A stretch of 64,000 nucleotides of DNA from Candidatus Buchananbacteria bacterium. GTDB taxonomy: Bacteria; Patescibacteriota; Patescibacteriia; Buchananbacterales; UBA6539. The position numbers and the translations under genes are program-made. Numbering within the stretch: position 1 is the stretch's first letter; each line of letters starts with the position of its first letter. Shown here one piece after another: positions 15,964-33,133 of the stretch. Below the pieces are notes generated by a model that saw only the letters and a program-made list of their open reading frames with translations, searched no databases and had not been told where the DNA came from. The stretch spans positions 344 to 64,343 of the forward strand of contig JBAYLH010000005.1 of NCBI GenBank assembly GCA_041664165.1. The letters are read 5' to 3'.

Positions 15964-15997
15964 AAAAAAAATAGCAGATTTGAGCTTAAAAATCAAC
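15964..15997. repeat. 32-bp direct repeat, copy 2, at the 3' end of ftsW
   Basis: aaaaaaaatagcagatttgAgcttaaaaatcaac; it overlaps the ftsW stop codon. Confidence 0.8.
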
Positions 15998-17156: not shown

Positions 17157-18661
17157 TTTTTTAAGCCTAAAACAATTTGATTAAACTGATCGCCCCGGTC
17201 ATATTCATGGATAAATAAATTAAACGAGGCACAGGCCGGCGAGAGCAAAATAGTACTTCCTGATTTAGCAAAACTTTTAGCCAAACTAACGGCCGGTAAC
17301 ATTTCATTAACCCCAAAAACAAAATTCCGATAATTAACCTTTTTTAATTGCTTGGCAATCTGCTCGCTGCCTTCGCCGGAAAATAATACCACCGCTTTGC
17401 AAGTCTGTTTAATGATGCCGGCTAGCTCCCGATATTTGGCTTCGGGAATATTTTTAGTCGCGCCGCCGGCAATTAAAATAATGTTTTTAGCTTTTAGCTT
17501 ATAGCTTGTAGCTTGCAGAGTATTAAGGGCGGCGATAGTTCCATCGGGCGTGGTAGCAGTTGTATCATTGACATAATCAACCCCATCAACTTGTCTGATA
17601 AATTCAATCCGACCCGGCAAGCCGTTGAAGCTAGCCAAGGCTGATTTGATTTCTTTTGGTTTTACTCCAAAAATTCCCGCCACGGTCAAAGCGGCTAAAA
17701 TATTTTCTAAATTATGCTCGCCTTTCAGCTTGCAAGCGGACAAGCTGGCAAGCTGGCTAATTCTGCCATTGAACCGAAAATAAATTTTGCCATTTTTAAC
17801 GAAACTGCCGTTTTGCTCCTTAAACTCTTTTTTGGAAAACCAAAACCGCCGAGCCGCCACGCTTTGCCCCATTTTTCTAGTATCAGAATTATCTAAATTC
17901 AAAATCGCAAAATCACTTTCTTTCTGCCAAGAAATTATATTCTTTTTCGCCGCGATGTAATCAGCCATTCCCAAGTAACGATTCAAATGATCCGGATAAA
18001 TATTGGTAACCAAGGCGATATTTGGACTTAACTTTTGCTGGCCTAAAATTTCCAGCTGCCACGACGAAAGCTCTAAAACCGCCAAATCATCGGTTTTAAT
18101 TTGATCTAAAATTTCCAGCATTGGCTTTTGCGGCAATCCTGCCAGCCAAACCTTTCTTCCTGTTCTCTGATTTCTGTTCTCTGATTTCTGATTTCTGTTT
18201 TCTGTTTTCTGTAATAATTCATAAATTAAACTAGCCGTCGTTGATTTGCCGCGAGTGCCAGTCACGCCAATAATTTTAGCGGGGCCTGCCTCGCCTATTC
18301 TATTGCGAAGTAAGCGGCAAGGCGGGCAATTTTTAAAAAATAAACTGGCATCATTTTCCGTTAGAATCCCGGCTTTTTCGGCAATTTTCAGGTATTTTGA
18401 CTGCCGCGGAACACCCGGGTTTTGAATAATCAAATCAGCGTTTTTAAAATCAATTTCGCGGTGCCGACCTAAGATTAGTTTGCAAGTTGGTAAGTTGGTA
18501 AGTTTTCTGAGGGAAGGTTCTAATTCTTTTTTAGTTTTTAAATCAGTCACGGTCACTTTAGCTCCGTGTTTTACCAGCCATAAGACAACTGCGACTCCAC
18601 CGCCGTGAAGTCCCAAGCCCATGACTGTTACTTTTTTGCCTTGAAATAAATTTTTTACCAT
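17153..18661 (-). CDS. murD: UDP-N-acetylmuramoylalanine--D-glutamate ligase (MurD) with in-frame low-complexity insertions
   Basis: KVTVMGLGLHGGG N-domain, GVTGTRGKSTT P-loop and Mur ligase C-domain. About 50 aa longer than typical MurD because of repeat-encoded inserts. Confidence 0.85.
   Translation of the reverse strand: MVKNLFQGKKVTVMGLGLHGGGVAVVLWLVKHGAKVTVTDLKTKKELEPSLRKLTNLPTCKLILGRHREIDFKNADLIIQNPGVPRQSKYLKIAEKAGILTENDASLFFKNCPPCRLLRNRIGEAGPAKIIGVTGTRGKSTTASLIYELLQKTENRNQKSENRNQRTGRKVWLAGLPQKPMLEILDQIKTDDLAVLELSSWQLEILGQQKLSPNIALVTNIYPDHLNRYLGMADYIAAKKNIISWQKESDFAILNLDNSDTRKMGQSVAARRFWFSKKEFKEQNGSFVKNGKIYFRFNGRISQLASLSACKLKGEHNLENILAALTVAGIFGVKPKEIKSALASFNGLPGRIEFIRQVDGVDYVNDTTATTPDGTIAALNTLQATSYKLKAKNIILIAGGATKNIPEAKYRELAGIIKQTCKAVVLFSGEGSEQIAKQLKKVNYRNFVFGVNEMLPAVSLAKSFAKSGSTILLSPACASFNLFIHEYDRGDQFNQIVLGLKK
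18158..18212. repeat. in-frame tandem microsatellite (ttctctgatttctg / ttttctg units) inside murD, encoding ENRNQKSENRNQ
   Basis: Direct tandem repeats are visible in the sequence. A second short repeat, ttggtaag x2, lies at 18487-18502. A tagctt-rich repeat at 17475-17500 encodes KLQATSYKLKAKN. Confidence 0.75.
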
Positions 18662-18665
18662 TTTC

Positions 18666-19685
18666 TTATTTAGTATTTCCAGCTAATTTCTTGATTTGCT
18701 CAATTATTTTTTTATCAACTTCAAGCCAGCCTCGCCGCAAAGCTATTTCTTTATTTTGATAGGCTTTCTTACCGGGTATAACAATTTCTTTAATCCCCTT
18801 CTTTCTTTTTACTGATTTAATTTCTTTAATAAACTGGCTATTTTTTTGCTTAAATTTTTTTAAAGAAGTAAAAACTGACGGATTAATGGCAATAAATAAA
18901 GCCCCCCTATATTTTTTGCCATATTTATCTTTTGAGCTGCCAATATCTTTTTTCTTGTATCCGATTTCCGCGTTCACCAAAGACCCGGTCAAAATCTCAA
19001 ATAAAATACCCAAGTTAAATCCTTTATAATCGCCAAAAGGCAGAGCGGCAAAAAAAGAATCGGGATCTTTAATAATTTCACCTTTTTTGTCGACAAAAGA
19101 ATCTTCTGGCAAATCGCGGCCTAATAGTTTGGCTAATTTAACTTCACTGATGGCTTTTTTTGAAATTGCCATGTCGCAAACAATCGGTTTTCCAAAAGTT
19201 GGAATGGCAAAACCAATCGGATTGGTAGCAAGTATTGCATCTAAACCACCAGGCGGCACCACAGTTGGCCCACCGCCGTTGATCAAGACTAAACCGATCA
19301 AATCATTTTCGGCAATTTTTTCCGCTTGGCTGCCCGGGCGCAGGAAAGGCAATGAATCATAAACTCCAACCATGGCAATCCCGGTTTTTTTAGCCATTTT
19401 TATTACTGCTTTAGTTGCTACGCCAGCCACCAATTGGCCAATCTGACCATTGGCATTCAGCAACAAAAAATTATTACTTTTTCGACTAACCAATATTTTT
19501 TTAGCCTTAGTCTGCCCCGCTTTTTCTATTACTCCTGAAAAACTTATTAAGCCATGAGTTATTTTACCCAAGAGTTCACCTTCAAGATAATCAGCCACAA
19601 CTATTTTTGCTTCAGCGGGTTTTAGTCCCCGCTTAATTAAAATTACTTCGCAAAGCCGTCGAATTTCCTTAATTTTGACCTTCAT
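18666..19685 (-). CDS. Ldh_2 family (malate/L-lactate/sulfolactate dehydrogenase-like) oxidoreductase
   Basis: The N-terminus (EIRRLCEVILIKRGLKPAEAKIVVADYLEGELLGKITHGL) matches the Ldh_2 family pattern. Its ~340-aa length fits that family. Confidence 0.45.
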   Translation of the reverse strand: MKVKIKEIRRLCEVILIKRGLKPAEAKIVVADYLEGELLGKITHGLISFSGVIEKAGQTKAKKILVSRKSNNFLLLNANGQIGQLVAGVATKAVIKMAKKTGIAMVGVYDSLPFLRPGSQAEKIAENDLIGLVLINGGGPTVVPPGGLDAILATNPIGFAIPTFGKPIVCDMAISKKAISEVKLAKLLGRDLPEDSFVDKKGEIIKDPDSFFAALPFGDYKGFNLGILFEILTGSLVNAEIGYKKKDIGSSKDKYGKKYRGALFIAINPSVFTSLKKFKQKNSQFIKEIKSVKRKKGIKEIVIPGKKAYQNKEIALRRGWLEVDKKIIEQIKKLAGNTK

Positions 19686-19770
19686 ACGTGATCCAATTAA
19701 CTTTCTAAAATCTTTTCTTTAGTCTATCCACAATTCATAATTAATAATTTCTAATTAATAATTCTAACTC

Positions 19771-20811
19771 CTACCCCTTAGACACTAAAAACAAAATTAA
19801 CCCGATAATTGACGAAACCGCGGCCACGACCCAAAAGCGCATCACGATTTTCGGTTCCGGCCAGCCGATTGCTTCTAAATGATGATGCAAGGGCGAAGAA
19901 ATAAAAAACTTCCGGCCAAAAACTTTTTTCCAAAACATCTGGATTAAAACGGAAAATGTCTCCACCACAAAAATAAAACCGATAATCGGCAAAAACAAGG
20001 CGGCATTAGTCAGCATCGCAATAATTCCCAAAGTTACTCCCAAAGACGTTGAACCGGTATCGCCCATAAAAAATCGGGCCGGATTGATATTAAACCACAA
20101 AAAAGCCAAAAGCGCGCCCATAATCACCCCGCAAAAAGCCGCTAAGTTATACCGGCCCTGGGAAAAAGAAATAACGCCGTAAGCCGCAAAAGCCGCCAGT
20201 AAAGTGCCGCCGGCCAAACCATCAAGCCCGTCAGTTAGGTTAACGGCGTGCGCTGTGCCGATAATGACAAAAATGAAAAACGGAATATACCACCAGCCGA
20301 TATCGAAATAACCGGCAAATGGAATATACAGCGTTGTCCACCCCAATTTGTAGTAAAACCACCAGGCGCCGACAACGGCAATTAAGCCATAAATCAAAAA
20401 ACGATGGCGCATCCGCAAACCGCCGCCGTCTTTTCCCATCCGCCAAATATCAAACAAATCATCAACCAAACCGACCAGAGCCGAAGCGACTAAAGCACCA
20501 AGGGGCAATAAGGTTTCGCTGCGGGACAAAAAATCCAACTTGCCCAAAAAACCGCCGAAGAACTGGTTGAGATAAAAAAACAAAAGCATTAAAAATAAGG
20601 TTGTTCCCCAGACCAAAACGCCGCCCATCGTCGGCGTACCGGCTTTTTTTTGGTGCATACTGGCAAAAACCGGCGCGACTTTGGCGTCCCGAATTCCCTT
20701 GCCCAAATGATATTTGTATAAAAAATAAGTTAAAAACGGCGTCCAGGCCAAAGTCAGGATAAAAGACACCGTCGCCAAAAAAAAGACTTTTACAAGATAA
20801 AAATCAACCAT
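19771..20811 (-). CDS. mraY: phospho-N-acetylmuramoyl-pentapeptide transferase (MraY)
   Basis: Ten-TM MraY with the Asp-rich loop (VDDLFDIWR) and the NLTDGLDGLAGG and HHHLEA motifs. Confidence 0.9.
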   Translation of the reverse strand: MVDFYLVKVFFLATVSFILTLAWTPFLTYFLYKYHLGKGIRDAKVAPVFASMHQKKAGTPTMGGVLVWGTTLFLMLLFFYLNQFFGGFLGKLDFLSRSETLLPLGALVASALVGLVDDLFDIWRMGKDGGGLRMRHRFLIYGLIAVVGAWWFYYKLGWTTLYIPFAGYFDIGWWYIPFFIFVIIGTAHAVNLTDGLDGLAGGTLLAAFAAYGVISFSQGRYNLAAFCGVIMGALLAFLWFNINPARFFMGDTGSTSLGVTLGIIAMLTNAALFLPIIGFIFVVETFSVLIQMFWKKVFGRKFFISSPLHHHLEAIGWPEPKIVMRFWVVAAVSSIIGLILFLVSKG

Positions 20812-20814
20812 AGC

Positions 20815-21186
20815 TTAAAAATTGGCTAAAATGATTAAAAAAACCGCGATCCCCAAGATAACCTGGATAAAAGTAGTAACCGCCGCTAAAAGCTGACTCA
20901 AAATAATTTCTTTCTGATAAACCAGCCCGGCTAAAAGAAAATTTATAAAAATAAAGGCCAGCCCCAAACCCGGCAAAAAGAATATCTGGTACCAAGCTGC
21001 CAACAAATCAATGCCAAAATAAATATTGTAATGCAAAGCCAAAGATTCCGTAAAACTTCCGGCCTGACTAAAAATCCAAAGCCAGATGCTGAGATTAAAA
21101 AGCAGGCTTAAGAAAAAATTAATCCGGATGAACTTATTACGGGAATAATAATTGGCTAAAATCGGATTTTGCCGGCGGAAAAACAT
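20815..21186 (-). CDS. small polytopic membrane protein, unknown function
   Basis: Four hydrophobic segments. It ends 3 nt before mraY. Confidence 0.35.
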   Translation of the reverse strand: MFFRRQNPILANYYSRNKFIRINFFLSLLFNLSIWLWIFSQAGSFTESLALHYNIYFGIDLLAAWYQIFFLPGLGLAFIFINFLLAGLVYQKEIILSQLLAAVTTFIQVILGIAVFLIILANF

Positions 21187-21430: not shown

Positions 21431-23158
21431 ATGTTTAATGACACCCAAATAAAAAAAATCCTGACTGAAACAAAAACAGTCGGCGAAAAAGAAATTGATA
21501 TCTGCATCGAAGAAGCCAAAAAAAGAAACCAAAAACTGGAAGAATACGTCATCAGCCAAAAAATTATCGGCGAAGAACAGCTCTACGAAGCCGCGGCAAA
21601 ATTTTTCGACTTGCCGTTTATTAATCTCAAAAATGAGACTATCCGCAAGGATATTCTTTTTTTAATCCCTGAAGCCATTGCCTCATCCCACAAAATCATT
21701 GCTTTTGACAAAAATGAGACTGAATTAAAAATTGCCACTTTGAACCCGGAAGATTTGGAAATATTTGAATTTTTGGGCAAAAAAACCGGTTTAGAAGTAA
21801 AAACTTTTCTTACCACGCCTGAAGGCATCGGCGAAGGAATAAAAAACTACCACAAAGGCTTAAAAGCTGAATTCCAGGACTTAACCAAAGAAGAAACCAA
21901 TACAGAGCTAGAAGGCAATACCAAATTGAAAGAATTAGCCCATGACCTGCCGGTGATCCGCATTGTCGATACCTTGCTCGAATATGCCATTTTTGAGAAT
22001 GCTTCGGATATTCACATTGAACCGACCGAAAAAGAAGTGGTTGTCCGCTACCGGATTGACGGCGTCTTGCGCAATGTGATGACCTTGCCCAAAACCATTC
22101 ATGCCGGAATCGTCGCCAGAATCAAAATTCTATCAAACCTCAAACTCGACGAGCACCGCCTGCCTCAGGACAGCCGCTTTAAGATTGAAACCAATGCCTA
22201 CAAAGTCTCTTTCCGGGTTTCGATTATCCCGGCCTACGACGGGGAAAAAATCGTTTTACGGGCCTTAAACGAAGCCACCAGCGTCATTACTTTGGAACAG
22301 CTTGGTTTCCAGCGGGAGCCACTGGAAAAAATGAGAAGAAATATTAAAAAACCCCACGGCCTAATTCTAGTCACCGGCCCGACCGGTTCGGGTAAAACTA
22401 CGACTCTTTATGCCGTTTTAAATATTTTAAACCGGCCGGAAGTTAATATTACCACCGTTGAAGACCCGATTGAATACCGCATGCCCGGCATTAACCAAAG
22501 CCAGGTCAACCCGAAAATCGGCTATACTTTTGCCGGCGCTCTCCGAGCCTTTTTGCGGCAAGACCCAAATATCATTATGGTCGGCGAAATCCGAGACCAG
22601 GAAACCGCCGAAATTGCCATTCACGCCGCTTTAACCGGCCATTTGGTTTTATCCACTCTGCATACTAACGACGCGCCGACTACTCTGCCCCGGTTAAGCG
22701 AAATGGGAATTCCGGCCTTTTTGGTCGCCTCAACCTGCAATTTAATCGTGGCCCAAAGGCTGGTCAGAAAAATCTGCCAGGATTGCCTGGAAAGCTATAC
22801 TTTAACCAAAATAGAAATTGACAAACTGGAAAAACAAATCAACTTGACTTCAATTTTAGAAACTTTGGAAAAAGAAAATTTAATCACCAAAAAACAGACT
22901 AAAGAATCACTGCTTTTTTACCGCGGCAAAGGCTGTAAAAAATGCGATAAAACCGGCTACAAAGGCCGGGTTGGCCTTTACGAAGTTTTAGAAATTACTT
23001 CGGAAATTTCCGATTTGATTTTACAAGGCGCGCCGGCCAAAGCGATTCAAAAAGCCGGCAAAGACCAGGGAATGTTAACCGTGATCGAAGACGGTTTTAT
23101 CAAAGCCAAAACCGGAATTACCACGATTGAAGAGGTTTTGAGAGTGACTAAAGATTAA
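21431..23158 (+). CDS. pilB: type IV pilus assembly ATPase PilB (GspE family)
   Basis: T2SSE N-domain, Walker A GPTGSGKTT, Asp box, His box, and a tetracysteine motif (CQDC ... CKKC). Confidence 0.9.
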   Translation: MFNDTQIKKILTETKTVGEKEIDICIEEAKKRNQKLEEYVISQKIIGEEQLYEAAAKFFDLPFINLKNETIRKDILFLIPEAIASSHKIIAFDKNETELKIATLNPEDLEIFEFLGKKTGLEVKTFLTTPEGIGEGIKNYHKGLKAEFQDLTKEETNTELEGNTKLKELAHDLPVIRIVDTLLEYAIFENASDIHIEPTEKEVVVRYRIDGVLRNVMTLPKTIHAGIVARIKILSNLKLDEHRLPQDSRFKIETNAYKVSFRVSIIPAYDGEKIVLRALNEATSVITLEQLGFQREPLEKMRRNIKKPHGLILVTGPTGSGKTTTLYAVLNILNRPEVNITTVEDPIEYRMPGINQSQVNPKIGYTFAGALRAFLRQDPNIIMVGEIRDQETAEIAIHAALTGHLVLSTLHTNDAPTTLPRLSEMGIPAFLVASTCNLIVAQRLVRKICQDCLESYTLTKIEIDKLEKQINLTSILETLEKENLITKKQTKESLLFYRGKGCKKCDKTGYKGRVGLYEVLEITSEISDLILQGAPAKAIQKAGKDQGMLTVIEDGFIKAKTGITTIEEVLRVTKD

Positions 23159-23176: not shown

Positions 23177-24265
23177 ATGAACCTGACTGATTTTTTAGCC
23201 AAAATTACCGGTTTGATCAAAACTCCAAAAAAAGTCAACCTGGCCCAAAAGATATTTTTTGTCCAGCAGCTGGGCGTGATGCTCCGAGCCGGTATTTCTT
23301 TATCAATTGCTTTAAAAACTTTATCCGAACAGACTTCCGCCAAGGGCTTTCGGCTGATTCTCTCCGATTTGCAGCAAGGAGTCGAAAAAGGAAACCTCTT
23401 GTCCAAGGGTTTGGAAAAATACCAAAAAACTTTCGGCGAACTTTTTATCAATATGGTCAGAGCCGGCGAAGCTTCGGGCAAACTGGAAGATGTTTTAAAA
23501 CAGCTGTTTACTCAGATGAAAAAAGACCATGACATTATTGCCAAGGTTAAAGGCGCCATGATTTATCCGGCCATTGTCGTTACCATGATGATTGCCATCG
23601 GCATCTTGGTTTTGGTTTATGTCATTCCGACTATGTCGAGCGTCTTTACGGAAATGAATATCGAGTTGCCGCTACCCACCAGAATTTTAATCGGCAGCAG
23701 CGATTTTGCTCTAAAATATGGCATCTTCATTTTGGCCGCTCTTATTGTTCTGATCATTGTCTTTCAAAGACTAGCCAGTCTGCCGGCCGGCAAAAAAAAA
23801 TTCCATCAAGTTTTACTGAAAATTCCGGTTGCCGGCGGCATTATCCAAAAAATAAACTTGGCTCGGTTTTGCCGAACCTTGAGTTCGCTGCTAAAAACTG
23901 ACATTCCGATTGTCCAGTCGTTTGAAATCACTGCCCGGATTTTAGGCAATGTTGTTTACAAAAATGCTTTGTTTGAGGCCAAGGAAAAAATCAAAAAAGG
24001 CATCAGCATCCAGGAATCTTTGAAACCGCATATCAAGCTCTTTCCGCCGGTGGTTTTGCAAATGATCATGGTTGGCGAGGAAACCGGCGCGCTGGATAAT
24101 ATCTTGGAAGAATCGGCCAACTTCTACGAAGAAGAAGTCAACCAGGTTATGACCAACTTGCCTTCGATAATCGAGCCGCTGTTAATGGTTATTTTAGGCG
24201 TTGGCGTCGGCGGCATGGCCGTAGCCGTCATTATGCCGATGTATTCCCTAAGTCAGCAAATTTAA
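23177..24265 (+). CDS. pilC: type IV pilus platform protein PilC (GspF family)
   Basis: Two GspF repeats with three TM segments, typical of PilC. Confidence 0.9.
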   Translation: MNLTDFLAKITGLIKTPKKVNLAQKIFFVQQLGVMLRAGISLSIALKTLSEQTSAKGFRLILSDLQQGVEKGNLLSKGLEKYQKTFGELFINMVRAGEASGKLEDVLKQLFTQMKKDHDIIAKVKGAMIYPAIVVTMMIAIGILVLVYVIPTMSSVFTEMNIELPLPTRILIGSSDFALKYGIFILAALIVLIIVFQRLASLPAGKKKFHQVLLKIPVAGGIIQKINLARFCRTLSSLLKTDIPIVQSFEITARILGNVVYKNALFEAKEKIKKGISIQESLKPHIKLFPPVVLQMIMVGEETGALDNILEESANFYEEEVNQVMTNLPSIIEPLLMVILGVGVGGMAVAVIMPMYSLSQQI

Positions 24266-24268: not shown

Positions 24269-24706
24269 ATGAGAAATAAAGGCTTTTCGATAGTTGAATT
24301 AATGATTGCCTTAACGGTAGTAGTTTTAATTTCCTTAATTTCTTTGCCGTTATTTATCACCTACCAAAAAACTACCAAGCTAAAAAGTGAATCCAGAATT
24401 TTAGTGTCTAACTTAAGATTAGCTCAGCAGCTAGCTATTACCGAACAAAATATTTATGACCTCAAACTTTTCCCCGACACTAAAACTTACCAAATAATCA
24501 ATGAGAAAGACAGCAGCATAAAAAAAACCGTGGTTTTAAACCCGGAAGTTTCAATTGCCGAAGTTACCGGTTTTACGGCTAATACCATCCGCTTTGTGGC
24601 TACCGGCGCCGTCATCGAAACCGGTACCATCCTGCTGTCAAACACTAATAATAACACTACGACTTTACAAATTAAACCTTCCGGTTATGTTGAGCTTTCC
24701 GAATAA
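24269..24706 (+). CDS. prepilin-type minor pilin, GspH/FimU-like
   Basis: Prepilin signal KGFSIVELMIAL (the G|F cleavage site, Glu at +5). The C-terminal pattern TIRFVATGAV ... TLQIKPSGYVEL resembles GspH/FimT. Confidence 0.6.
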   Translation: MRNKGFSIVELMIALTVVVLISLISLPLFITYQKTTKLKSESRILVSNLRLAQQLAITEQNIYDLKLFPDTKTYQIINEKDSSIKKTVVLNPEVSIAEVTGFTANTIRFVATGAVIETGTILLSNTNNNTTTLQIKPSGYVELSE

Positions 24707-25121
24707 AAACAAGGGTTTTTCTATCATCGAAGGCACCCTGGCAATTGCCGTCTTGATCATCGGTTTGATGGCAATAATGCAAGTTTTTCCTTTTGGCTTA
24801 AAAGTGATCGGCGATTCCCAAAATACCACCATTGCCTCAAGCGTGGCTTTGGAAAAAATTGAAGAATTAAGATCGGTTCAATATGACAGCTTGGCAACTG
24901 GAACAATTGAAGCCAAGCATCATTTGTCAGCTGATGCCGGAAACTATTTATATAGCTATCAGCGGCAAACCATTGTCGAATTAGTTGATGCTAATTTCAA
25001 TCAAAGCGGGACTGACATCGGTTTAAAAAAAATTACCGTCACGGTTTTTTGGGTTTCGCCGGTCGGCTTTGCCGAAAAGTCAATTCAGTTAAATTCAATC
25101 GTCGCTAAAACTGCTGATTAA
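24687..25121 (+). CDS. prepilin-type minor pilin, PilV-like
   Basis: KGFSIIEGTLAIAVLIIGLMA followed by a PilV-like segment (..VALEKIEELRS). The start is trimmed to the internal ATG at 24687; the track ORF began at 24555. It overlaps the preceding gene by 20 nt. Confidence 0.55.
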   Translation: MLSFPNKNKGFSIIEGTLAIAVLIIGLMAIMQVFPFGLKVIGDSQNTTIASSVALEKIEELRSVQYDSLATGTIEAKHHLSADAGNYLYSYQRQTIVELVDANFNQSGTDIGLKKITVTVFWVSPVGFAEKSIQLNSIVAKTAD

Positions 25122-25128: not shown

Positions 25129-25698
25129 ATGAATAAGCTGCTAAAAAACCAAAAAGGATTTACCTTGGCCGAATTGATAATATCGGTCATGATTATTTTG
25201 CTGATTTTAATAATCATTGCCAGCGTTTTTTCCTTAAACCAAAAAGTCTTCCGAAAAAGCAATCTCAAAGCCGAGTTGGATCAAAATGCCAGAATCACCC
25301 TTGATTTAATGGCTCGGGAAATCAGGCAGGCCAAAGCTTTAGTCACTGCTCTGCCGGCCGATAATTCCAACCCGGCTTTGGTTCCCCATGAAATTCAATT
25401 TGAAGACGGCCACAACACAACACAAATCCAATACATCAGATATTATTTAGACGGCGGCAATTTGAACCGGCAAACCATTGTTTATTATTTTGATACCAGC
25501 CCCGGTGTTTATGTCCGCTACAATGACGTCGATGCTTTTGGCGCTCCCGAATCAAATATTTTAGAAGATAAAGTCATCAGTGAAAATTTTTCGGCCCTTG
25601 ATTTTTACGGCACTGAAAACATTACTATTGATTTAACTTTAACCAAGCGCGGAGAACAAGTACAAATCAGATCGATTATCAACCCGCGGAATATTTAA
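25129..25698 (+). CDS. prepilin-type minor pilin, PilW-like
   Basis: KGFTLAELIISVMII signal, then ELDQNARITLDLMAREIRQA, which matches the PilW signature region. Confidence 0.55.
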   Translation: MNKLLKNQKGFTLAELIISVMIILLILIIIASVFSLNQKVFRKSNLKAELDQNARITLDLMAREIRQAKALVTALPADNSNPALVPHEIQFEDGHNTTQIQYIRYYLDGGNLNRQTIVYYFDTSPGVYVRYNDVDAFGAPESNILEDKVISENFSALDFYGTENITIDLTLTKRGEQVQIRSIINPRNI

Positions 25699-25710: not shown

Positions 25711-26910
25711 ATGAATTTAAAGAAAAGAAAAGGCTTTATTTTAATCATGTCAGTTTTGGTTTTATCAACCTTGCTAATGGTCGGAACTTATCTGCTGTCC
25801 AATGCCAATTCGGAAAGCAAAATCTCCAAAGTCCAGTTTCTGGCGACAAAAAATTATTACCTGGCGGAAACCGGCATCCACGATATGATTTGGAAAATTC
25901 AAAATGATGCCGCAACCAGACAGGCTTTTTTGAACGGCACTTTGAGCAGCAGCAATAATATCACTAAAACTAATATCTTCGGCGATGCCGCGGCCAGCTA
26001 CCAAGTCACTGCCGCTAATACCACCACTTCCGAAGCCTGGATTATTGCCACTTCCACTTATCAAATCGGCAATAATATCTCTCAGCGAGTAGTGAAATCA
26101 TACATCAGCAAGGCAACCGGCAGCACTGCCGACTGGGAATTCACCGTTTTCGCCGGCGGGCGAGGCTCCCAGCAAAATGGCAATTTTAATTTTACCGGAT
26201 CAGGAGTAATCCTGACGTCAACCGGTGGCCGGCTTCATGCCAACCAGCTTCTAAAAATTAAAGGCGGCGAATTAAAAATTAATAACGGCGGCATCACTGC
26301 CAGCAATAACATTATCGTCAACGCCGGCGGCAAATTAACCTTAAATAATAGCTATCAAGAGGCTCCCACTAGCACCATTGATACACTGCAAATTGATTTT
26401 GACTCCGCCTTGCCAACCTCTTGGAAAAACCGCGCCGACACAACCTATACCTCGGCTCAATTTTCCAATTTGGCCAATAACACCACTTTAAACGGCATTA
26501 TTTATGTTACCGGCGCCGCCAGCATCACTGGTAAAAATATGACCATTAATGGCGTATTGGTCGCCAGCGGTAATCTTTCCATCACTAACGCCGGCAATAC
26601 TTTTGTAATTAATGCCGATCCGGTCAAAGGCGGCGGGCTTTTATCCAAGGGTAATATCTCAATTACCACTTCGGGCGGCAGCGTAACAGTTAATGGCCTG
26701 ATTTATTCGGGCAATAAACTGAGCATGACCAGCGCCGGAACTAATTTTACTATCAACGGCAGTATGAGCGGTTTTGACGCCGATGTTACCGCCAGCGGCG
26801 GCTCAATAATTTTAAACTATACCCCGGCTAACTTTCAGCCGGTAATAGACCCTACGTATAATTCCACCTCGCCGATAATTCAAATCAACCACTGGGAAGA
26901 ACAATACTAA
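25711..26910 (+). CDS. PilX-like minor pilin (no Glu at +5) with a ~270-aa C-terminal beta-helix-like repeat domain; candidate pilus-tip protein
   Basis: The N-terminus (KGFILIMSVLVLSTLLMVGTYLL ... YYLAETGI) fits a PilX N-terminal domain. The C-terminus is rich in repeated N/G/T/S beta-strand motifs (GKLTLNNSY, NMTINGVLVASGNLSITNAGNTFVINAD, GNISITTSGGSVTVNG ...). Confidence 0.5.
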   Translation: MNLKKRKGFILIMSVLVLSTLLMVGTYLLSNANSESKISKVQFLATKNYYLAETGIHDMIWKIQNDAATRQAFLNGTLSSSNNITKTNIFGDAAASYQVTAANTTTSEAWIIATSTYQIGNNISQRVVKSYISKATGSTADWEFTVFAGGRGSQQNGNFNFTGSGVILTSTGGRLHANQLLKIKGGELKINNGGITASNNIIVNAGGKLTLNNSYQEAPTSTIDTLQIDFDSALPTSWKNRADTTYTSAQFSNLANNTTLNGIIYVTGAASITGKNMTINGVLVASGNLSITNAGNTFVINADPVKGGGLLSKGNISITTSGGSVTVNGLIYSGNKLSMTSAGTNFTINGSMSGFDADVTASGGSIILNYTPANFQPVIDPTYNSTSPIIQINHWEEQY

Positions 26911-26951: not shown

Positions 26952-28010
26952 ATGATTTTTGATGTCAATAAAAATATTTTCGGCCTTGATATTAGCGATC
27001 GGGCCTTACGGCTTGTCCAGCTCAAAAAATCGGGAAATAAAATAATCCTGGCTTCTTATAATGCCTTAGAAATACCGGCTGATGTTATCGCCGGCGGCGA
27101 AATCAAGCAAGAAGAAAAACTAGCTGAACTAATCAAAAAATTAGTTAAGACAGCTAACGGTAAAAAAATTAAGACAAAAAATACGGTAACCGTCTTGCCG
27201 GAAACTAAAACTTTTATTAAAGTAATCGATGTTCCTTCGGTTGGCAACGATGAAGAGCTGGCCGAAATTATCAAAGAAGAAATTAAAAATCATATTCCGC
27301 TGAGCTCAGACGAAATCTACTTGGATTGGCAAATTTTAGCAAAACAATCAGGATCAACAAAAGTGCTAATTGGCGCCGCTCCGAAATACATCGTTGATTC
27401 TTATTTCTCCGTGATCGAAAAAAGCGGCCTCGTGCCTTATGCTTTGGAGATCGAATCAGCGGCAATTGTCCGCAGCTTATTTGCCAAAGATGATAAAACC
27501 GCCAAAATTATTGTTGATTTCGGCGCCGTCCGGACCGGTTTAATTATTTATAGCCAAAAGGCAATCCCTTTCACTATCACTCTGCCGATTTCCGGCAATA
27601 AAATTACGGATACCATTGCTACAACTTTAAAGCTAGACCCGCTAAAAGCCGAGAAAGCTAAAATTGTCTGCGGTCTTGATCCAAAAAAATGCGAAGGCGC
27701 ATTGCTGAAAATTCTGCTTAAACCGATCCAAAGTATCGCTGACCAGATCAAAAAAGCGATAATTTTTTATAAAAGTAATTTCTCAATCAATAATGAAATT
27801 TCCGAAGTCATCCTTTGCGGCGGCGGCGCTAATTTTTCTAATATCGACAAAATTCTGGCCGAAAAATTAAATCTGACAGTAAAAATCGGCAATCCCCTGA
27901 CTAATATTGCAAAAACTAAAAAAATCAAAATCCCGCCAGATAAAATTTTATCCTATACTACGGCAATCGGCCTGGCCCTGAGGGCTTTTCAAAAAAAAGA
28001 CGTAATATGA
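26952..28010 (+). CDS. pilM: type IV pilus assembly protein PilM (actin-like ATPase fold)
   Basis: FGLDISDRALRLVQL N-terminus, an actin/FtsA-like fold, and the CGGGAN segment. Confidence 0.8.
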   Translation: MIFDVNKNIFGLDISDRALRLVQLKKSGNKIILASYNALEIPADVIAGGEIKQEEKLAELIKKLVKTANGKKIKTKNTVTVLPETKTFIKVIDVPSVGNDEELAEIIKEEIKNHIPLSSDEIYLDWQILAKQSGSTKVLIGAAPKYIVDSYFSVIEKSGLVPYALEIESAAIVRSLFAKDDKTAKIIVDFGAVRTGLIIYSQKAIPFTITLPISGNKITDTIATTLKLDPLKAEKAKIVCGLDPKKCEGALLKILLKPIQSIADQIKKAIIFYKSNFSINNEISEVILCGGGANFSNIDKILAEKLNLTVKIGNPLTNIAKTKKIKIPPDKILSYTTAIGLALRAFQKKDVI

Positions 28011-28549
28011 TTACCCTTAACTTAATTTCACCGGAAAAAAAGCAGGAGCTCCGCTTGACCCAGCTTTATTTAGTGATCAAAAATTTAATTATTTTAGTTC
28101 TGCTTTTAACTATCATGATCGGCATCGTTCTTTTAGTCACCAAGGCAATACTGCAAAATTATTTTAATGACGTAATAAATGAAACGACGCTGACCACCAA
28201 GTACGCTTCGATTTTTAATAAGGAGCTTAAAGAATTCAATAAACAGATCCGATCGGTGGAAAGCATCCAGAAAAATTATATTTCCTGGCCTAATTTCTTT
28301 ATTGATTTCGCCAAACTGATACCAACCGATGTTAAAATTAATGATTTTACCATTAATAACAACAAAATATTAATCACTGGCGACGCCAAAACCAGGGAAA
28401 AACTCTTAGAGTTTAAAGGCAATTTGGAAAAATCAAACCTTTTGAGCAACGTGGCGATTCCTTTGGAAAATTTGCTTAAAAAAGTTGATGTTGTTTTCAA
28501 TGTTAAGGCTGATATTAATTTGGACAAAATAAAAAACTATGAAAATTAA
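28007..28549 (+). CDS. pilN: PilN-like pilus assembly protein
   Basis: A single N-terminal TM segment and a position and size typical of PilN. It overlaps pilM by 4 nt. Confidence 0.55.
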   Translation: MITLNLISPEKKQELRLTQLYLVIKNLIILVLLLTIMIGIVLLVTKAILQNYFNDVINETTLTTKYASIFNKELKEFNKQIRSVESIQKNYISWPNFFIDFAKLIPTDVKINDFTINNNKILITGDAKTREKLLEFKGNLEKSNLLSNVAIPLENLLKKVDVVFNVKADINLDKIKNYEN

Positions 28550-29081
28550 ACAAAAAATCATTATATTTTTAGCCATAGTTTTGTTTATTACCGGCTTAGT
28601 TATTTATTTCGTAATTTTACCAACCGTTAATGACATAAAAAAAATCAGCAGCGATATTTATGCCGAAAGAATCGACTTGGAAAAAAAATACCAGCGAGGC
28701 CAGCTGCTCAAAAAAACTATCGCCGATTTTGAAAAAATTAAACCCCAAAAAGACAGATTATCCAGTATTTTTATCGTTAGCGGCAATGAATTAAAATTTA
28801 TTACCGACTTGGAAGAAATCGCCGCTTTGCATAAATTGACCCAAAATCTCAATTTACAGCCGATAAAAAATTTAGAAGACGGGAGCTTCTACTCTTCGCC
28901 TTTGGAAATCAAAACTTTAGGCGGGTTTACCGAAACCCTGAAATACCTTAAAGACTTAGAAAAATTAACTTACTATTTCAATATTTCTTCTCTGGAGTTC
29001 AGATCCGACGACCAGACTGGCTTAATCAGTAACACTGTCTCAGGAAAAATTTATTTTACAGAAGATCAAACGAAACAATAA
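28539..29081 (+). CDS. pilO: PilO-like pilus assembly protein
   Basis: Single TM segment, coiled-coil, then an alpha/beta domain. The gene order matches pilMNO. Confidence 0.5.
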   Translation: MKIKQKIIIFLAIVLFITGLVIYFVILPTVNDIKKISSDIYAERIDLEKKYQRGQLLKKTIADFEKIKPQKDRLSSIFIVSGNELKFITDLEEIAALHKLTQNLNLQPIKNLEDGSFYSSPLEIKTLGGFTETLKYLKDLEKLTYYFNISSLEFRSDDQTGLISNTVSGKIYFTEDQTKQ

Positions 29082-29082: not shown

Positions 29083-29439
29083 ATGACATTTAAACTGCCA
29101 AAAATAAAAATATTTAATGTCTTGCTTTCTTTGAAATATTTTTATTTCCTGATGCTTCTCTTGGTAATTGCCGTATTAATTTTTGTCGGTCTGTTCCTCT
29201 ACAAAAATTTTTACCAGACCATCACTCAGTCGCAAGAAATTATCCTCCTCAGGCAAGAAGTGGCTCCTGACGTGATAAATATGGATAAGGTTGAAAAAAT
29301 TCTGAAACTTTTAGATCAGAAAGCTACTACCACTGAAGAAATAAACTGGCAAGACGTCAAAAACCCTTTTATTTTTCAAACCGCGCCAAAAATTGAATCT
29401 CCGGAAATATCAGCTAACCCGCCAGCGGTTAAAAACTAA
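29083..29439 (+). CDS. small bitopic membrane protein at the end of the pilus operon (PilP-like position)
   Basis: One TM helix and no recognisable family. Confidence 0.35.
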   Translation: MTFKLPKIKIFNVLLSLKYFYFLMLLLVIAVLIFVGLFLYKNFYQTITQSQEIILLRQEVAPDVINMDKVEKILKLLDQKATTTEEINWQDVKNPFIFQTAPKIESPEISANPPAVKN

Positions 29440-29511: not shown

Positions 29512-30669
29512 TTATTTTATTGGCGATATTTTTCTTAATTTTTCTACAATTCCAGGCAAAACCTTTAGCAGCTGGTCAATATCTTTTTCCGGATTAAATT
29601 TACCCAGGGTAATTCTTAAACTGCCGTGAGCCAACAGCGGCTCCAGCCCCAGGCTCATTAAAACGTGAGACGGCTTAAGCGAACCGGAAGAACAGGCCGA
29701 ACCGGTCGAAACCGCAATTCCCGCCTGGTCTAAAAGCAAAAGCAGGCTTTCTCCTTCAACGCCCCTGAAACTGAAATGAGCATTGCCGGGTACTCGCTTT
29801 TTCAAATCACCATTGACTTGAGCATTAGGCACCGCCTTGATAATGCCGTCAATTAATTTATCTCTGAGTTTCTTAATTTTTTCATTATTCTCTTTTTCTA
29901 AAGCGACTAGCTCAATCGCCTTGCCTAAGCCGATAATCCCGGTAACATTCAAAGTTCCCGGCCGAATGCCGGACTCATGATGGCCGCCAAATTGAATCGG
30001 CCGTAGTGGCACCACGGTTTTTTTGTATAAAGCGCCGATGCCCTTGGGGGCGTAAATTTTATGGCCGGATAGAGAAAGCAAATCAACTCCAAGTTTATCA
30101 ACATTCATCTCGCAATAGTTAACCGCTTGGACAGCATCGGTGTGAAAATAAATTTTTTCTTTTCTTTGCTGATTCAACTCCTTAATCATTTGGCCGATTT
30201 CGGCAATTGGCTGAATCGTGCCGATTTCATTATTAACGTACATAATTGAAACCAGCCTGGTATTTTCTTTAATCGCTTTTCTGACGGCTTCAACTGAAAC
30301 TAAGCCTTCGCGGGAAACGCCGAGATAAGTTACTTCCACCCCTCTTTTTTCCATTTCCCGGCAAGGTTCCAAAATCGCCGGATGCTCAATTTCGGCAGTG
30401 ATAATATGTTCTCCGGATTTAGCCAGGCCCAAAATAACTAAGTTATCGCTTTCCGTCGCTCCGGAGGTAAAAATCACTTCATTGGTTTTGCCGCCTAAAA
30501 AATCAGCAATCTTTTCCCTGGCCTCATCAACGGCGGCCATTGCTTTTTGGCCGAAAAGATGAATCGAAGAAGCATTACCGAAATCCTCGCTAAAATACGG
30601 CAGTATCGCCGCCAATACTTTTGGATCAACTGGCGTTGTCGCTGAATGATCAAAATAAACCCTAGCCAT
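29512..30669 (-). CDS. iscS: cysteine desulfurase (IscS/NifS)
   Basis: PLP fold with SGHK lysine and C-terminal SSGSACSSGS active-site Cys loop. The start is taken at the Met of MARVYFDHS; the track ORF extends to 30687. Confidence 0.85.
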   Translation of the reverse strand: MARVYFDHSATTPVDPKVLAAILPYFSEDFGNASSIHLFGQKAMAAVDEAREKIADFLGGKTNEVIFTSGATESDNLVILGLAKSGEHIITAEIEHPAILEPCREMEKRGVEVTYLGVSREGLVSVEAVRKAIKENTRLVSIMYVNNEIGTIQPIAEIGQMIKELNQQRKEKIYFHTDAVQAVNYCEMNVDKLGVDLLSLSGHKIYAPKGIGALYKKTVVPLRPIQFGGHHESGIRPGTLNVTGIIGLGKAIELVALEKENNEKIKKLRDKLIDGIIKAVPNAQVNGDLKKRVPGNAHFSFRGVEGESLLLLLDQAGIAVSTGSACSSGSLKPSHVLMSLGLEPLLAHGSLRITLGKFNPEKDIDQLLKVLPGIVEKLRKISPIK

Positions 30670-30673
30670 ACAA

Positions 30674-30898
30674 TTAAACTGATTCAATTTCTTTAACCCC
30701 TTTGACTTTGCTTTTTAAAGCCCGGCCGATGCCTTCCTGCAAAGTCATTTGCGACATCGGGCAGCAAGAACAGGCGCCTTGCAGCTTGAGTTTAACCACG
30801 CCGCTCTTTTCGTCAAAATCAATAAATTCAACGTCCCCGCCGTCGGCCTGCAAACTCGGCCTGATTTCGTCTAAAACTTTTTTAATTTCGTCTTTCAT
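30674..30898 (-). CDS. nfu: NifU C-terminal domain Fe-S protein (Nfu)
   Basis: LQGACSCCPMS CxxC motif inside a Nfu fold, 74 aa. Confidence 0.8.
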   Translation of the reverse strand: MKDEIKKVLDEIRPSLQADGGDVEFIDFDEKSGVVKLKLQGACSCCPMSQMTLQEGIGRALKSKVKGVKEIESV

Positions 30899-30918
30899 AA
30901 TTTTTTAGCTTTTAGCTA

Positions 30919-30964
30919 TTAGCTTATAGCATGTAGAACCCTCGCTCTAAAAACTATAAGCTAA
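30919..30964. promoter_or_regulatory. perfect 11-bp inverted repeat hairpin (ttagcttatag ... ctataagctaa) inside the isc operon, between iscU and nfu
   Basis: Read directly from the sequence. The loop is 24 nt. The motif TAGCTTATAGC recurs at 17475-17500 and 58700-58745. Confidence 0.6.
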
Positions 30965-30967
30965 CAG

Positions 30968-31417
30968 CTAATGCAATTCCTCCGCAACTTTAAAATTCTT
31001 AATTTCCGGATAGTTATCTAAAACTCCCTGGTCGCGCAAATAATTTTCTATCGCTACTTTTAAGGCGTCAGAAGCTAAAACCGAACAATGGAGCTTAACC
31101 GGCGGCAATTCGCCTAAGCCTTTGACAATATCGGCTTTCTCCAAACCAAAAGCCTGTTTTAGACTTTGACCTTTGACCATGTCAGTTGAAACCGAAGAAC
31201 AGGCAATGGCCGCGGCGCAACCCAAGGTTTCAAATTTAACATCACTAATTTTGTCTTGTAGCCGATCACCAGAATCGGCCTTAGTAATTTTTAAATAAAT
31301 TTTCATCATGTCGCCGCAAAGCGGATTACCGACTTCGCCGACGGCGTCGGCACCGGGTATTTGACCCTGGTTATGCGGATTTTGAAAATGGTCCATGACC
31401 AATTTGGAATAAGCCAT
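30968..31417 (-). CDS. iscU: Fe-S cluster scaffold protein IscU/SufU
   Basis: The three conserved cysteines lie in GNPLCGD, ETLGCAAAIA and KLHCSVLA. Confidence 0.85.
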   Translation of the reverse strand: MAYSKLVMDHFQNPHNQGQIPGADAVGEVGNPLCGDMMKIYLKITKADSGDRLQDKISDVKFETLGCAAAIACSSVSTDMVKGQSLKQAFGLEKADIVKGLGELPPVKLHCSVLASDALKVAIENYLRDQGVLDNYPEIKNFKVAEELH

Positions 31418-31421
31418 ATAA

Positions 31422-31844
31422 TTAAATTAAATCTTTTAAACTTATCTTTCTAAGTGAATCAGCAATCGCCTTTTGTACCTTTTGATAAACTTGGGCTGAA
31501 GGGCAGGCTTTAACCCCGCAAACAACCTTACCCTTAGAATTAACGCAATGAAAGACCGAAATTGACCCCTCTAGGGTCGAAATTACGTCAAAAATGGCGA
31601 TTTGCGCCGGGTCTTTAGTCAATTGATAGCCACCGGCCATTCCTTTTGAACTCATCACCAAACCAGCCCTTTTTAACTGCGCAAAAAGGCGTTCCAAATA
31701 AGCTTGCGAGATTTTTTCTTCCCGGGCGATTTTGGCTAAAGAGTATGGCTTTTTGGCCGCCTGGCCTCGGCGAGGCTGGTTGTAATTTTTGGCTAAATGG
31801 CTTAAAGCCCTCAGTCCGTAGGAAGAACGGGTGGAAAATTTCAT
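31422..31844 (-). CDS. iscR: Rrf2-family transcriptional regulator (IscR-like)
   Basis: Rrf2 HTH (YGLRAL ... ISQAYLERLFAQLKRAGLV) plus a three-Cys cluster CVNSKGKVVCGVKACP. It is the first gene of the isc operon. Confidence 0.75.
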   Translation of the reverse strand: MKFSTRSSYGLRALSHLAKNYNQPRRGQAAKKPYSLAKIAREEKISQAYLERLFAQLKRAGLVMSSKGMAGGYQLTKDPAQIAIFDVISTLEGSISVFHCVNSKGKVVCGVKACPSAQVYQKVQKAIADSLRKISLKDLI

Positions 31845-31857
31845 AAATAAACTTTAA

Positions 31858-31911
31858 CACCAACTAAAATGGTTGGTATTTACATTTTAGCATAAAAAAA
31901 AATCCTGTCAA
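31858..31911 (-). promoter_or_regulatory. isc operon promoter (TTGACA, 16 nt, TGcTAAAAT extended -10) with a palindromic operator (ACCAAC TAAAATG GTTGGT) downstream of the -10
   Basis: The -35 and -10 elements were read as reverse complements at 31906-31911 and 31884-31892. The palindrome at 31858-31876 is a candidate autoregulatory site for the Rrf2 regulator. Confidence 0.45.
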
Positions 31912-31933
31912 GCCTCTGATTGTAAATAAGCAA

Positions 31934-32743
31934 TTATTTGCTGACTATAATTACCACCTTTCTCCCCTGCGCCATTTCGGCGTCAGTCATGCCGCCGCTA
32001 GCCAGCTCGTGATTCCAATCGTGAACCGCGTTAATCAGGGTTTGATATTTATAACGATAACCGGCTCCGTTTCTGGTACCGGGGTCATTAGTGATAAACT
32101 CGCCCCTGGCTTCGTCATAACCGCGGGCAACTAGCATGTGGTAAATCGGGCCTGGCGGTTTAAAATTGGGATTGCCCAAAAGCCGGCCGGCGGCGGGAAT
32201 AATAATCAAATTCCCGGCCAGTAACTCCTTTTTAATTCTGGCAACCGTCACTTCGCTTGTTACTTCGGCTTTTAAGCTAAAATAACTTTTCAAAATTACC
32301 GTCGCTTCACTGGCCGTCACGTCAACTTGATAGCCATTTTGTTCTTCCCATTTTACCAAATTTAAAATCCCCTGTTCCATCAAATGGGCGCTCAGCGGCT
32401 CGCCCTTGAAATACTTTGCCGTCATAATCATGGCGGCTTCTTCGCAGGCTTCTTCGTGCAACGCATCCCAATTGGCAAGCGGCGCTTGAGACGCAAAAGC
32501 TACCGGATAATCCAAAAATTTCGACGGTTCGCTATTGGTTTCTGGCTTGGGTTTTTCTGCCTCAACTTTCGCGGTGGAAGTGGCTTTGACTGGCTCAACT
32601 GTTTCCGGCGGCAAAGCCGGCGTTGAAGTTACCGATGAATCTTTATCTTGACTGACCAACTTACCAGCTTTATCTTGACTGGCCGTCTGGCAGCCAGCCA
32701 AAAGCAAAATAGGCAAAATTAACCATAAATACTTGATTTTCAT
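31934..32743 (-). CDS. lipoprotein with a putative C39-like/papain-fold peptidase domain
   Basis: Lipobox LLLAGC. A Pro/Thr/Glu/Lys-rich linker is followed by a ~190-aa domain with Cys and His residues arranged like YvpB/C39_2. The similarity is weak. Confidence 0.3.
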   Translation of the reverse strand: MKIKYLWLILPILLLAGCQTASQDKAGKLVSQDKDSSVTSTPALPPETVEPVKATSTAKVEAEKPKPETNSEPSKFLDYPVAFASQAPLANWDALHEEACEEAAMIMTAKYFKGEPLSAHLMEQGILNLVKWEEQNGYQVDVTASEATVILKSYFSLKAEVTSEVTVARIKKELLAGNLIIIPAAGRLLGNPNFKPPGPIYHMLVARGYDEARGEFITNDPGTRNGAGYRYKYQTLINAVHDWNHELASGGMTDAEMAQGRKVVIIVSK

Positions 32744-32773
32744 ACTATAATAGTATATACCAATTAGCCTGGC

Positions 32774-32802
32774 TTGACAATTCGCCTTTGATAAGTTATA
32801 TT
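32774..32802 (+). promoter_or_regulatory. rpmA promoter
   Basis: TTGACA, a 17-nt spacer, then TATATT. Confidence 0.45.
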
Positions 32803-32851
32803 ACTTTCATCCCTAATTTTTAATTTCCTATTTTCTAAAACCTAAAACAAT

Positions 32852-33133
32852 ATGGCACATAAGAAAGCCGGTGGTTCCACTAGTTTGGGCCGCGATTCCC
32901 AGTCTAAAAGATTAGGCGTAAAAATTTACGAAGGTCAGCATACCAATGCCGGCAATATTTTGATCAGACAAAGAGGCACTAAAATTCGGCCGGGACAAAA
33001 TGTCAGACGAGGCGAAGACGACACGCTCTACGCCGCAATTGCCGGTTTCGTTAAATTCAGCCGGAAAAAAGTAAAAAAATTCACCGGCAAATTGGAATGG
33101 GTGAAATTAATCAATGTCTTTCCGAAAAAATAA
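32852..33133 (+). CDS. rpmA: 50S ribosomal protein L27
   Basis: [16 protein letters not shown] ... a canonical bL27 N-terminus, with a C-terminal extension. Confidence 0.9.

Follow-up and report, generated by a model that had tools for sequence, protein, structure and literature searches.

A predicted beta-solenoid carried by a probable capping minor pilin of a type IV pilus operon from Buchananbacteria-like Patescibacteria

Among described minor pilins, the closest structural counterpart of the protein considered here is ComZ of Thermus thermophilus HB27 (PDB 6QVI; Salleh et al., mBio 2019), a GspK-like pilin in which a solenoid, whose closest relative is the ice-binding protein FfIBP, is inserted before the last strand, and in which the ends of this solenoid are joined by a long loop with a short helix (PMC6561018). 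ComZ binds DNA and has been argued to fit only at the tip of the pilus (PMC6561018). All cyanobacterial PilX homologs are likewise reported to possess a solenoid of the ice-binding-protein type, inserted at the same point, and cyanobacteria are generally devoid of PilY1, the plug role of which the solenoid has been proposed to take over (bioRxiv 10.64898/2026.02.12.705559). The present analysis concerns a gene located at positions 25711..26910 of a 64,000-nucleotide stretch of DNA (the whole of which is referred to as the window) from a Candidatus Buchananbacteria bacterium (GenBank assembly GCA_041664165.1, contig JBAYLH010000005.1). Its product, hereafter the target, is in our judgment likely to be a capping core minor pilin of the PilX/GspK/ComGG class, furnished with a solenoid, in the type IV pilus of Buchananbacteria-like Patescibacteria.

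Further described systems provide partial parallels. Tapirins consist of a beta-helix with a long loop connecting its ends, and their genes adjoin a type IV pilus locus. PilX-like pilins of Saccharibacteria, which carry other modules, are candidate tip proteins, one of which, PilX2, is required for the host to be bound efficiently (PMC11623550), and modular pilins as a whole number more than 1,200 proteins in 264 architectures, Patescibacteria examples included (PMC8179133). A sequence-only reading of this DNA had proposed that the target represents a PilX-like pilin fused to a beta-helix-like adhesin domain which replaces PilY1, and had regarded such an architecture as unusual. The latter view is not borne out, as ComZ is the top structural match of the target, cyanobacterial PilX proteins share its design, and modular pilins are widespread, while the proposed replacement of PilY1 is sound but not new because the ComZ and cyanobacterial PilX precedents have been published.

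The target gene possesses an ATG start, encodes an open reading frame (ORF) of 399 amino acids on the plus strand (as do all features described below unless otherwise indicated), and is a real gene which is conserved across homologs. Sequence searches returned 88 homologs at E<=1e-3, mostly full length at 55-70% identity, of which those bearing a taxon name were assigned to Candidatus Buchananbacteria, Falkowbacteria, or "Patescibacteria group." Among 1.84 billion cluster representatives, a family profile retrieved 4472 proteins at a threshold of E<=1e-3; at E<=1e-30 there remained 171, which represent clusters at 50% identity and nearly all of which aligned end to end. By these sequence matches, the family is widespread across Patescibacteria. 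No published description of this particular Patescibacteria family was found in the literature searched, and the public label of most relatives is "hypothetical protein." The public gene call for the target itself (P0001; 387 amino acids, 100% identical) is 12 residues shorter and probably starts at Met13, so that the prepilin leader and the Gly/Phe site would be lost from the annotation.

The N-terminus of the target, MNLKKRKG/FILIMSVL (the slash marks the predicted cleavage site), displays the features of a class III signal peptide, with a putative prepilin leader, MNLKKRKG (residues 1 to 8; 25711..25734), for which cleavage after Gly8 is predicted, and a subsequent hydrophobic sequence, FILIMSVLVLSTLL. 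The alpha-1 helix assigned to residues 9 to 75 (25735..25935) is hydrophobic in its N-terminal half, harbors Met at position +5, and contains in its second half the motif YYLAE(A/T)G (residues 49 to 55), which is among the most conserved stretches of the family. Across the 51 aligned members, the Gly at -1 is invariably retained, the basic leader is short throughout, and position +5 is occupied by T, I, M, L, or V but never by Glu; Glu5 is equally absent from 169 family proteins, and it is present in all three pilins encoded directly upstream of the target. PilX_N (PF14341) matches 47 of 52 aligned members at E<=0.1 (best, 7.6e-8), GspK matches 8 of 56 family members (best, 1.4e-6), ComGG 8 of 56, and Verru_Chthon cassette protein A 10, many of the PilX_N, GspK, and ComGG matches falling under the curated cutoffs. 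Because scans of the target against Pfam and NCBIfam gave nothing usable, the pilin class is assigned at the family level only. The "PilX-type N-terminus" previously ascribed to the target therefore applies to its family and not to the protein itself, which has no Pfam match, while its designation as a PilX/GspK-class minor pilin is supported. As the three upstream pilins match Verru_Chthon cassette proteins D, B, and C, and the target family matches cassette protein A, GspK, and ComGG, the four genes constitute a core minor-pilin set of the GspH/I/J/K type, of which the target is the capping member that lacks Glu5.

Beyond this N-terminal region, the target is repetitive. The four repeat motifs that had been reported from the sequence were all located, namely, GGKLTLNNSY at residue 206, GKNMTING...VINAD at residue 274, GNISITTSGG...TINGS at residue 314, and ADVTASGGSIILNY at residue 357. 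Asn, Gly, Thr, Ser, and Ile account for 56% of residues 138 to 385 versus 45% of the N-terminal part, and this 248-residue region contains no Cys and carries a low charge density (12 Lys plus Arg and 12 Asp plus Glu). The autocorrelation of Gly and Asn across the same region peaks at 6-7, 13-14, 20-21, 27-28, 34, and 41 residues, a spacing of approximately 6.7 residues which matches the pattern expected of a three-sided solenoid with about seven residues per side and a coil of about 20 residues.

A full-length AlphaFold2 model, built on a 52-sequence alignment, attained a mean predicted local distance difference test (pLDDT) value of 88.5 and presented, in order, a helix (residues 7 to 65), four strands (84 to 134), approximately 25 short strands (144 to 369), a linker of about 20 residues, and a final strand (389 to 398), while a model of residues 138 to 385 alone reached a pLDDT of 95.3 and a predicted template modeling score (pTM) of 0.92. 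The four strands (84-89, 92-105, 108-119, and 122-134; 25960..26112) are predicted to form an antiparallel pilin sheet, for which Foldseek returned a weak match to the minor pilin PilA of Streptococcus sanguinis (7O5Y; E 2.1, TMt 0.42). The short strands make up the predicted beta-solenoid (26140..26817), which has coils of about 20 residues and is supported by the domain model, by Foldseek, and by the sequence periodicity. This solenoid is broken up by a nonrepetitive, highly conserved connecting loop with short helices (residues 218 to 257, P..DFDS..SWK.RA; 26362..26481), which in the AlphaFold2 models is without strands at residues 218 to 243 and helical at residues 248 to 252. The repetitive beta-helix-like domain that had been suggested is thus predicted with high confidence, and the C-terminal region is modeled as neither disordered nor irregular, the outcome that had been named as fatal to the suggestion.

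The final strand, which ends in HWEEQY-COOH (residues 389 to 399; 26875..26907), is more highly conserved than any other segment and constitutes the strongest signature of the family. Among 214 full-length proteins of the family, 206 terminate in W[ED]Ex[YFW]-COOH, mostly as HWEE(E/Q)Y, and W395 and E396 remain unchanged even at 25% overall identity. No previously described motif resembling this C-terminus was found, nor did the C-terminal 32 residues significantly match PDB sequences. This strand probably completes the pilin sheet, and the order of secondary-structure elements, taken together with the invariant C-terminal strand, suggests that the solenoid is inserted before the last pilin strand, as in ComZ, and is not a C-terminal fusion. 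The earlier term "fused" therefore appears to be overstated.

Structural comparison with Foldseek placed ComZ (6QVI) in the three top positions when the full model was searched against the PDB (E 2.7e-7 to 4.9e-6; probability, 1.0), followed by the C-terminal domain of tapirin. When the solenoid was searched in isolation, the best E value was that of tapirin 6N2B (4e-4), the template modeling score (TM) of the DUF3494-type ice-binding proteins 6EIO, FfIBP, ColAFP, and LeIBP ranged from 0.34 to 0.48 (0.38 to 0.48 for matches such as 6EIO and FfIBP), and the value obtained for ComZ (TMq) was 0.43. For the ice-binding proteins 6EIO, FfIBP, and 3WP9, match probabilities of 0.9-1.0 pertain to the fold level only, and no DUF3494 sequence match was detected for the solenoid; DUF3494 proteins were also the top three matches of the isolated solenoid in a viral structure library. 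Sequence comparisons with tapirins were marginal, both for the family profile against 4WA0 (E 0.029) and for the NCBIfam tapirin model (E 0.078, 2 of 56 members). Sub-threshold matches to DUF7305 cover the second half of the solenoid, and a literature search on this domain found no papers. The resemblance to pectate lyases that had been put forward is not upheld, as the PL3 structures 4YZ0 and 4Z03 gave E values of 0.13-8 at a TM of approximately 0.2 (E>0.1 and TM<=0.22 for PL3 matches overall) with no corresponding Pfam match, and the fold is instead of the ice-binding/DUF3494, ComZ, and tapirin type. Likeness to filamentous hemagglutinin (E>0.1, TM<=0.22) and to tailspikes or PL6 lyase (E>0.02, TM<=0.29) was similarly insignificant.

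The target gene is the sixth of a ten-gene operon on the plus strand. The operon opens with genes for a PilB-type extension ATPase (21431..23158; 575 amino acids), whose 80% identical ortholog on a 601-kb Buchananbacteria contig (L001; GCA_013359225.1) contains MshEN and T2SSE domains, and for the platform protein PilC (23177..24265; 362 amino acids), whose ortholog on the same contig harbors T2SSF (PF00482). The three minor-pilin genes follow, the first of which (24269..24706) specifies a GspH/FimU/ComGD-like protein with Glu5 in the context KG/FSIVE (N_methyl, 4e-5; GspH, 3e-4; ComGD, 2e-11; Verru_Chthon cassette D). The second (24687..25121), the start of which overlaps the first by 20 nucleotides, specifies a PilV/GspI-like protein with KG/FSIIE (PilV TIGR02523, 1e-5; Verru_Chthon cassette B), and the third (25129..25698) a PilW/GspJ/ComGF-like protein with KG/FTLAE (N_methyl, 5.5e-6; Verru_Chthon cassette C, 2e-8; ComGF, 6e-6). 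Downstream of the target lie genes for PilM (26952..28010; PilM_2, 4e-49; TIGR01175, 5e-52), PilN (28007..28549; PF05137, 2e-7), and a PilO-like protein (28539..29081) whose match to PF04350 is below threshold (0.004) and whose position is conserved. The last gene (29083..29439) encodes a 118-residue protein with a hydrophobic N-terminal stretch and no Pfam or NCBIfam match; a counterpart at the same place in relatives exhibits 33-55% identity, and the protein may represent an additional part of the alignment complex.

The gene order pilC, three pilins, target, and pilM is retained on the 601-kb contig, around distant homologs of 30-33% identity (L002 and L003), and in most of 78 loci from species-representative genomes, whose labels comprise Buchananbacteria, Falkowbacteria, Nealsonbacteria, Kerfeldbacteria, Jorgensenbacteria, Gribaldobacteria, Doudnabacteria, and Paceibacterota. 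Eight loci with the Patescibacteria-type operon (L009, L011, L013, L016, L017, L023, L024, and L028) are titled "uncultured Gammaproteobacteria," "uncultured Candidatus Saccharibacteria," or "Pirellulales," titles which are probably automatic mislabels or reflect misbinned contigs and not spread of the family beyond Patescibacteria. On one side, the operon is flanked by a cell-wall and division cluster (13955-21186; MurG, FtsW, MurD, and MraY, assigned by synteny with L001), and on the other by an iron-sulfur cluster region (29512-33133; NifS, NifU, and Rrf2), an arrangement retained in relatives belonging to one of the two Buchananbacteria clades compared below (clade A). Elsewhere in the window, the minus-strand region 37792-52809 contains six paralogous ORFs encoding 441 to 528 residues (37792-39228, 44571-46157, 47009-48334, 48334-49791, 49793-51346, and 51343-52809), the sole Pfam match of which is a 72-residue C-terminal PEP-utilizers mobile domain, the N-terminal region of approximately 400 residues being without a match. 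A PPDK_N-only ORF (39243-40235) and several ORFs without a match are interspersed among them.

A Pfam scan covering 33 ORFs of the window, including every ORF of at least 400 amino acids, the largest of which is SecA, identified no PilY1/PilC tip protein, either within the operon or among the remaining scanned ORFs. Nor was PilY1 found within 10 kb of the ortholog on the 601-kb contig, the neighbors of which match those of the target. The earlier statement that the operon lacks PilY1 is thereby confirmed and extended, and no adjacent PilY1 gene, which would have spoken against its replacement by the target, was encountered at either locus. The target itself is not a PilY1/PilC protein, since PF05567 is not matched and the model depicts a solenoid and not a propeller. 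Secretin/PilQ was likewise not detected among the scanned ORFs, an absence in keeping with the single membrane that Patescibacteria are generally held to possess. The scanned ORFs also include neither PilD nor PilT, and the operon contains neither comEA nor comEC. A motif scan of the window revealed no pilin motif other than those of the operon itself, so that the window does not encode the major pilin.

Comparison of the window with 17 close loci indicated that conservation of the target is decoupled from that of the pilus machinery. Relative to clade A loci, the target is 58-68% identical and PilB 73-80%. Relative to clade B (L009, L010, L012, L015, and L019), the corresponding values are 63-65% for the target, 60-62% for PilB, 48-50% for PilC, 42-47% for PilM, and 34-47% for the other minor pilins. 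Taken more broadly, the ranges between the two Buchananbacteria clades are 60-71% for the target, 60-64% for PilB, 47-52% for PilC, and 42-49% for PilM, which renders the target the most conserved gene of the locus. In round figures, the solenoid retains ~65% identity between these clades, and the remainder of the operon falls to 40-60%. The flanking NifS and NifU proteins of clade B are 50-58% identical to those of the window, compared with 52-61% for unrelated Patescibacteria lineages, in which the target is only 30-35% identical. At the protein level, clade B membership is presumed, three members being linked to clade B loci and the rest assigned by a shared N-terminal extension; in these members, identity to the window amounts to 30-40% for the leader and membrane helix, 56-62% for alpha-1C, and 59-75% for the solenoid and loop, the last being on par with clade A. 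These identities would imply either very strong constraint on approximately two thirds of the solenoid sites or movement of the module between clades. Under either alternative, the pattern argues against a rapidly diversifying, host-specific adhesin. Between the two clades, the N-terminal helix, all other genes of the operon, and the flanking housekeeping genes are as diverged as between different Patescibacteria lineages. That the solenoid evolves independently of the pilus which carries it is a reading which we regard as rather unlikely; were it true, the invariant HWEExY C-terminus would represent the joint that allows the module to be swapped. Should the pattern stem from a tip cassette having been exchanged laterally, or from selection for one shared ligand, the solenoid would dictate the attachment or uptake of these uncultured episymbionts.

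From the sequence, the predicted model, and the relatives named above, we infer the steps by which the target would function, including leader cleavage, tip location, insertion topology, and ligand. The prepilin would be anchored in the membrane via its N-terminal hydrophobic helix, and its eight-residue leader would be removed after Gly8. Because it lacks Glu5, the target is expected to sit uppermost in a priming complex that also comprises the three upstream GspH-, GspI/PilV-, and GspJ/PilW-like pilins, beneath which PilB, PilC, and PilMNO would polymerize a major pilin encoded elsewhere. Having been pushed out first by this machinery, the target would therefore present its rigid triangular beta-solenoid of approximately 230 residues, which probably follows the fourth pilin strand and precedes the invariant HWEEQY strand at the C-terminus, at the tip of the filament. 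There, the solenoid would serve as plug and ligand binder, as PilY1 does in Proteobacteria, offering flat faces rich in Thr, Ser, and Asn for binding. The adhesin role suggested earlier is one of several candidate functions. As for the ligand, we tentatively favor host or partner cell-surface or polysaccharide material, by analogy with tapirin, cyanobacterial PilX-EPS, and Saccharibacteria PilX2.

A number of observations weigh against this proposal. The target itself yields no Pfam match at E<=1 and only insignificant NCBIfam matches (ComGE, E 0.035; ComGG, E 0.086). Its relation to ComZ is based on a predicted structure with low global TM scores (0.2-0.44), and phmmer together with two family profiles against the PDB produced, as a sequence link to ComZ, only a match of E 3.4 over the N-terminal helix. 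The insertion topology derives from the order of elements in the model. Neither a prepilin peptidase nor a major pilin nor PilT was found in the window, processing and assembly thus being assumed, and the absence of PilY1 covers the window and the ortholog locus of the 601-kb contig, the rest of the genome not having been searched. Lastly, the strong conservation of the solenoid is unlike that of typical fast-evolving adhesins and weakens the specific suggestion of a host-specific adhesin.

The ligand could alternatively be extracellular DNA, with the solenoid acting, as in ComZ, as a DNA receptor for natural transformation in a ComG-like competence pilus which feeds nucleotide-auxotrophic cells. 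We consider this possible but somewhat doubtful. ComZ is both the best structural match and a DNA binder, the cassette genes score best against the ComGD, ComGF, and ComGG models, the competence-type subfamily of cyanobacterial PilX shares the same design, and strong conservation of the solenoid across clades would fit a universal ligand. However, the equal and sparse complement of basic and acidic residues in the solenoid provides little charge density, the operon is devoid of comEA and comEC, and mutants in the second pilus (T4P-2) of Saccharibacteria display no competence defect (PMC11623550). Furthermore, the two DNA-binding lysines of ComZ are not mappable onto the target because the two proteins share no sequence similarity, a point which itself counts against this reading. 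That the solenoid binds nothing, and merely acts as a rigid plug and primer which nucleates the minor-pilin complex and caps the filament, appears unlikely, even though a plug role has already been proposed for the cyanobacterial PilX solenoid and the most conserved elements of the target (alpha-1C, the connecting loop, and the C-terminal strand) are probably interfaces and not exposed solenoid faces. Within Buchananbacteria the solenoid is as conserved as the pilin domain (60-73%), which exceeds the need of a spacer, and its structural relatives do bind ligands, namely, DNA in the case of ComZ, cellulose in that of tapirins, and ice in that of ice-binding proteins.

Two further explanations were weighed. 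The target might be a membrane-anchored surface protein outside the pilus, with its N-terminal helix serving as an uncleaved signal anchor. The window encodes no prepilin peptidase, and PilD is not predicted to process ComZ or the PilX1 and PilX2 proteins of Saccharibacteria, although the invariant -1 Gly and short basic leader, the fixed place of the gene inside the minor-pilin cassette in all loci examined, and the pilin-like fold predicted behind the helix render such a role very improbable. We attach still less credence to a tip-borne enzyme that would cleave polysaccharides, as a lyase or hydrolase akin to pectate lyases or tailspikes. Carbohydrate-active enzymes are common among parallel beta-helices, and a resemblance to pectate lyases had been noted earlier, yet the PL3, PL6, and tailspike structures all matched at E>0.02 and TM<=0.29, and no catalytic family was matched in Pfam or NCBIfam. 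A capping minor pilin that bears its solenoid at the pilus tip therefore continues to be the reading that we favor.

The analysis provides a specific and testable annotation for a family whose members are mostly labeled "hypothetical protein" and which spans many Patescibacteria lineages, in which host attachment and DNA uptake are thought to depend centrally on type IV pili. It also extends the design of ComZ and cyanobacterial PilX, in which a capping pilin bears a solenoid of the ice-binding-protein type and PilY1 is absent, to another deep bacterial lineage, the third, whose operon here lacks a secretin gene, and its presence in this third lineage suggests that the design is ancient or has been repeatedly reinvented. 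Conservation of the solenoid relative to the machinery marks the tip module as a good target for finding the hosts or ligands of uncultured Buchananbacteria.

Known systems resemble the target to different extents. PilY1/PilC shares its proposed tip role as plug and adhesin but is not a pilin, possesses a C-terminal beta-propeller (PF05567), and exhibits no sequence or fold similarity. GspK, Pseudomonas aeruginosa PilX, and ComGG resemble the target in lacking Glu5, in being specified by the last gene of the H-I-J-K cassette, and in the sub-threshold matches of the family. GspK harbors an extra domain within the pilin sheet, as the target probably does, although this insert is alpha-helical and located between strands 3 and 4, whereas P. 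aeruginosa PilX and ComGG are small and without such a module. PilX1 and PilX2 of Nanosynbacter lyticus TM7x belong, like the target, to the PilX-like minor pilins found in Patescibacteria and bear large accessory modules, which are a beta-jelly-roll and a seven-bladed beta-propeller in place of a solenoid. The tapirins of Caldicellulosiruptor (PDB 4WA0, 6N2B, and 6N2C) share the combination of a beta-helix with a long loop and the proximity to a pilus locus. They are, however, larger, with an N-terminal region of approximately 300 residues of unknown fold, bind cellulose via an aromatic-lined face, are not described as pilins in the tapirin study consulted, and attain low TM scores against the target (0.17-0.32).

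The cyanobacterial PilX proteins (PilX-Com and PilX-EPS/HpsA-like) correspond to the target in design, in the absence of PilY1, and in the idea that the solenoid acts as its substitute, while differing in phylum and in their diderm envelope. This comparison is made by description and not by sequence, a single one of 56 family members weakly matching HpsA (E 0.012), which does not demonstrate homology. ComZ and the target have in common a GspK-like domain with a triangular ice-binding-type solenoid, the lack of Glu5, minor-pilin neighbors, and a loop with a short helix in the solenoid. ComZ differs in its 534-residue chain and solenoid of approximately 380 residues, compared with approximately 230 in the target, and in its diderm host, in which the tip must cross the PilQ secretin; DNA binding has been shown for ComZ and is a candidate function of the target. 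No new mechanism is revealed, and the target joins the type defined by ComZ and cyanobacterial PilX, which is now represented in Patescibacteria.

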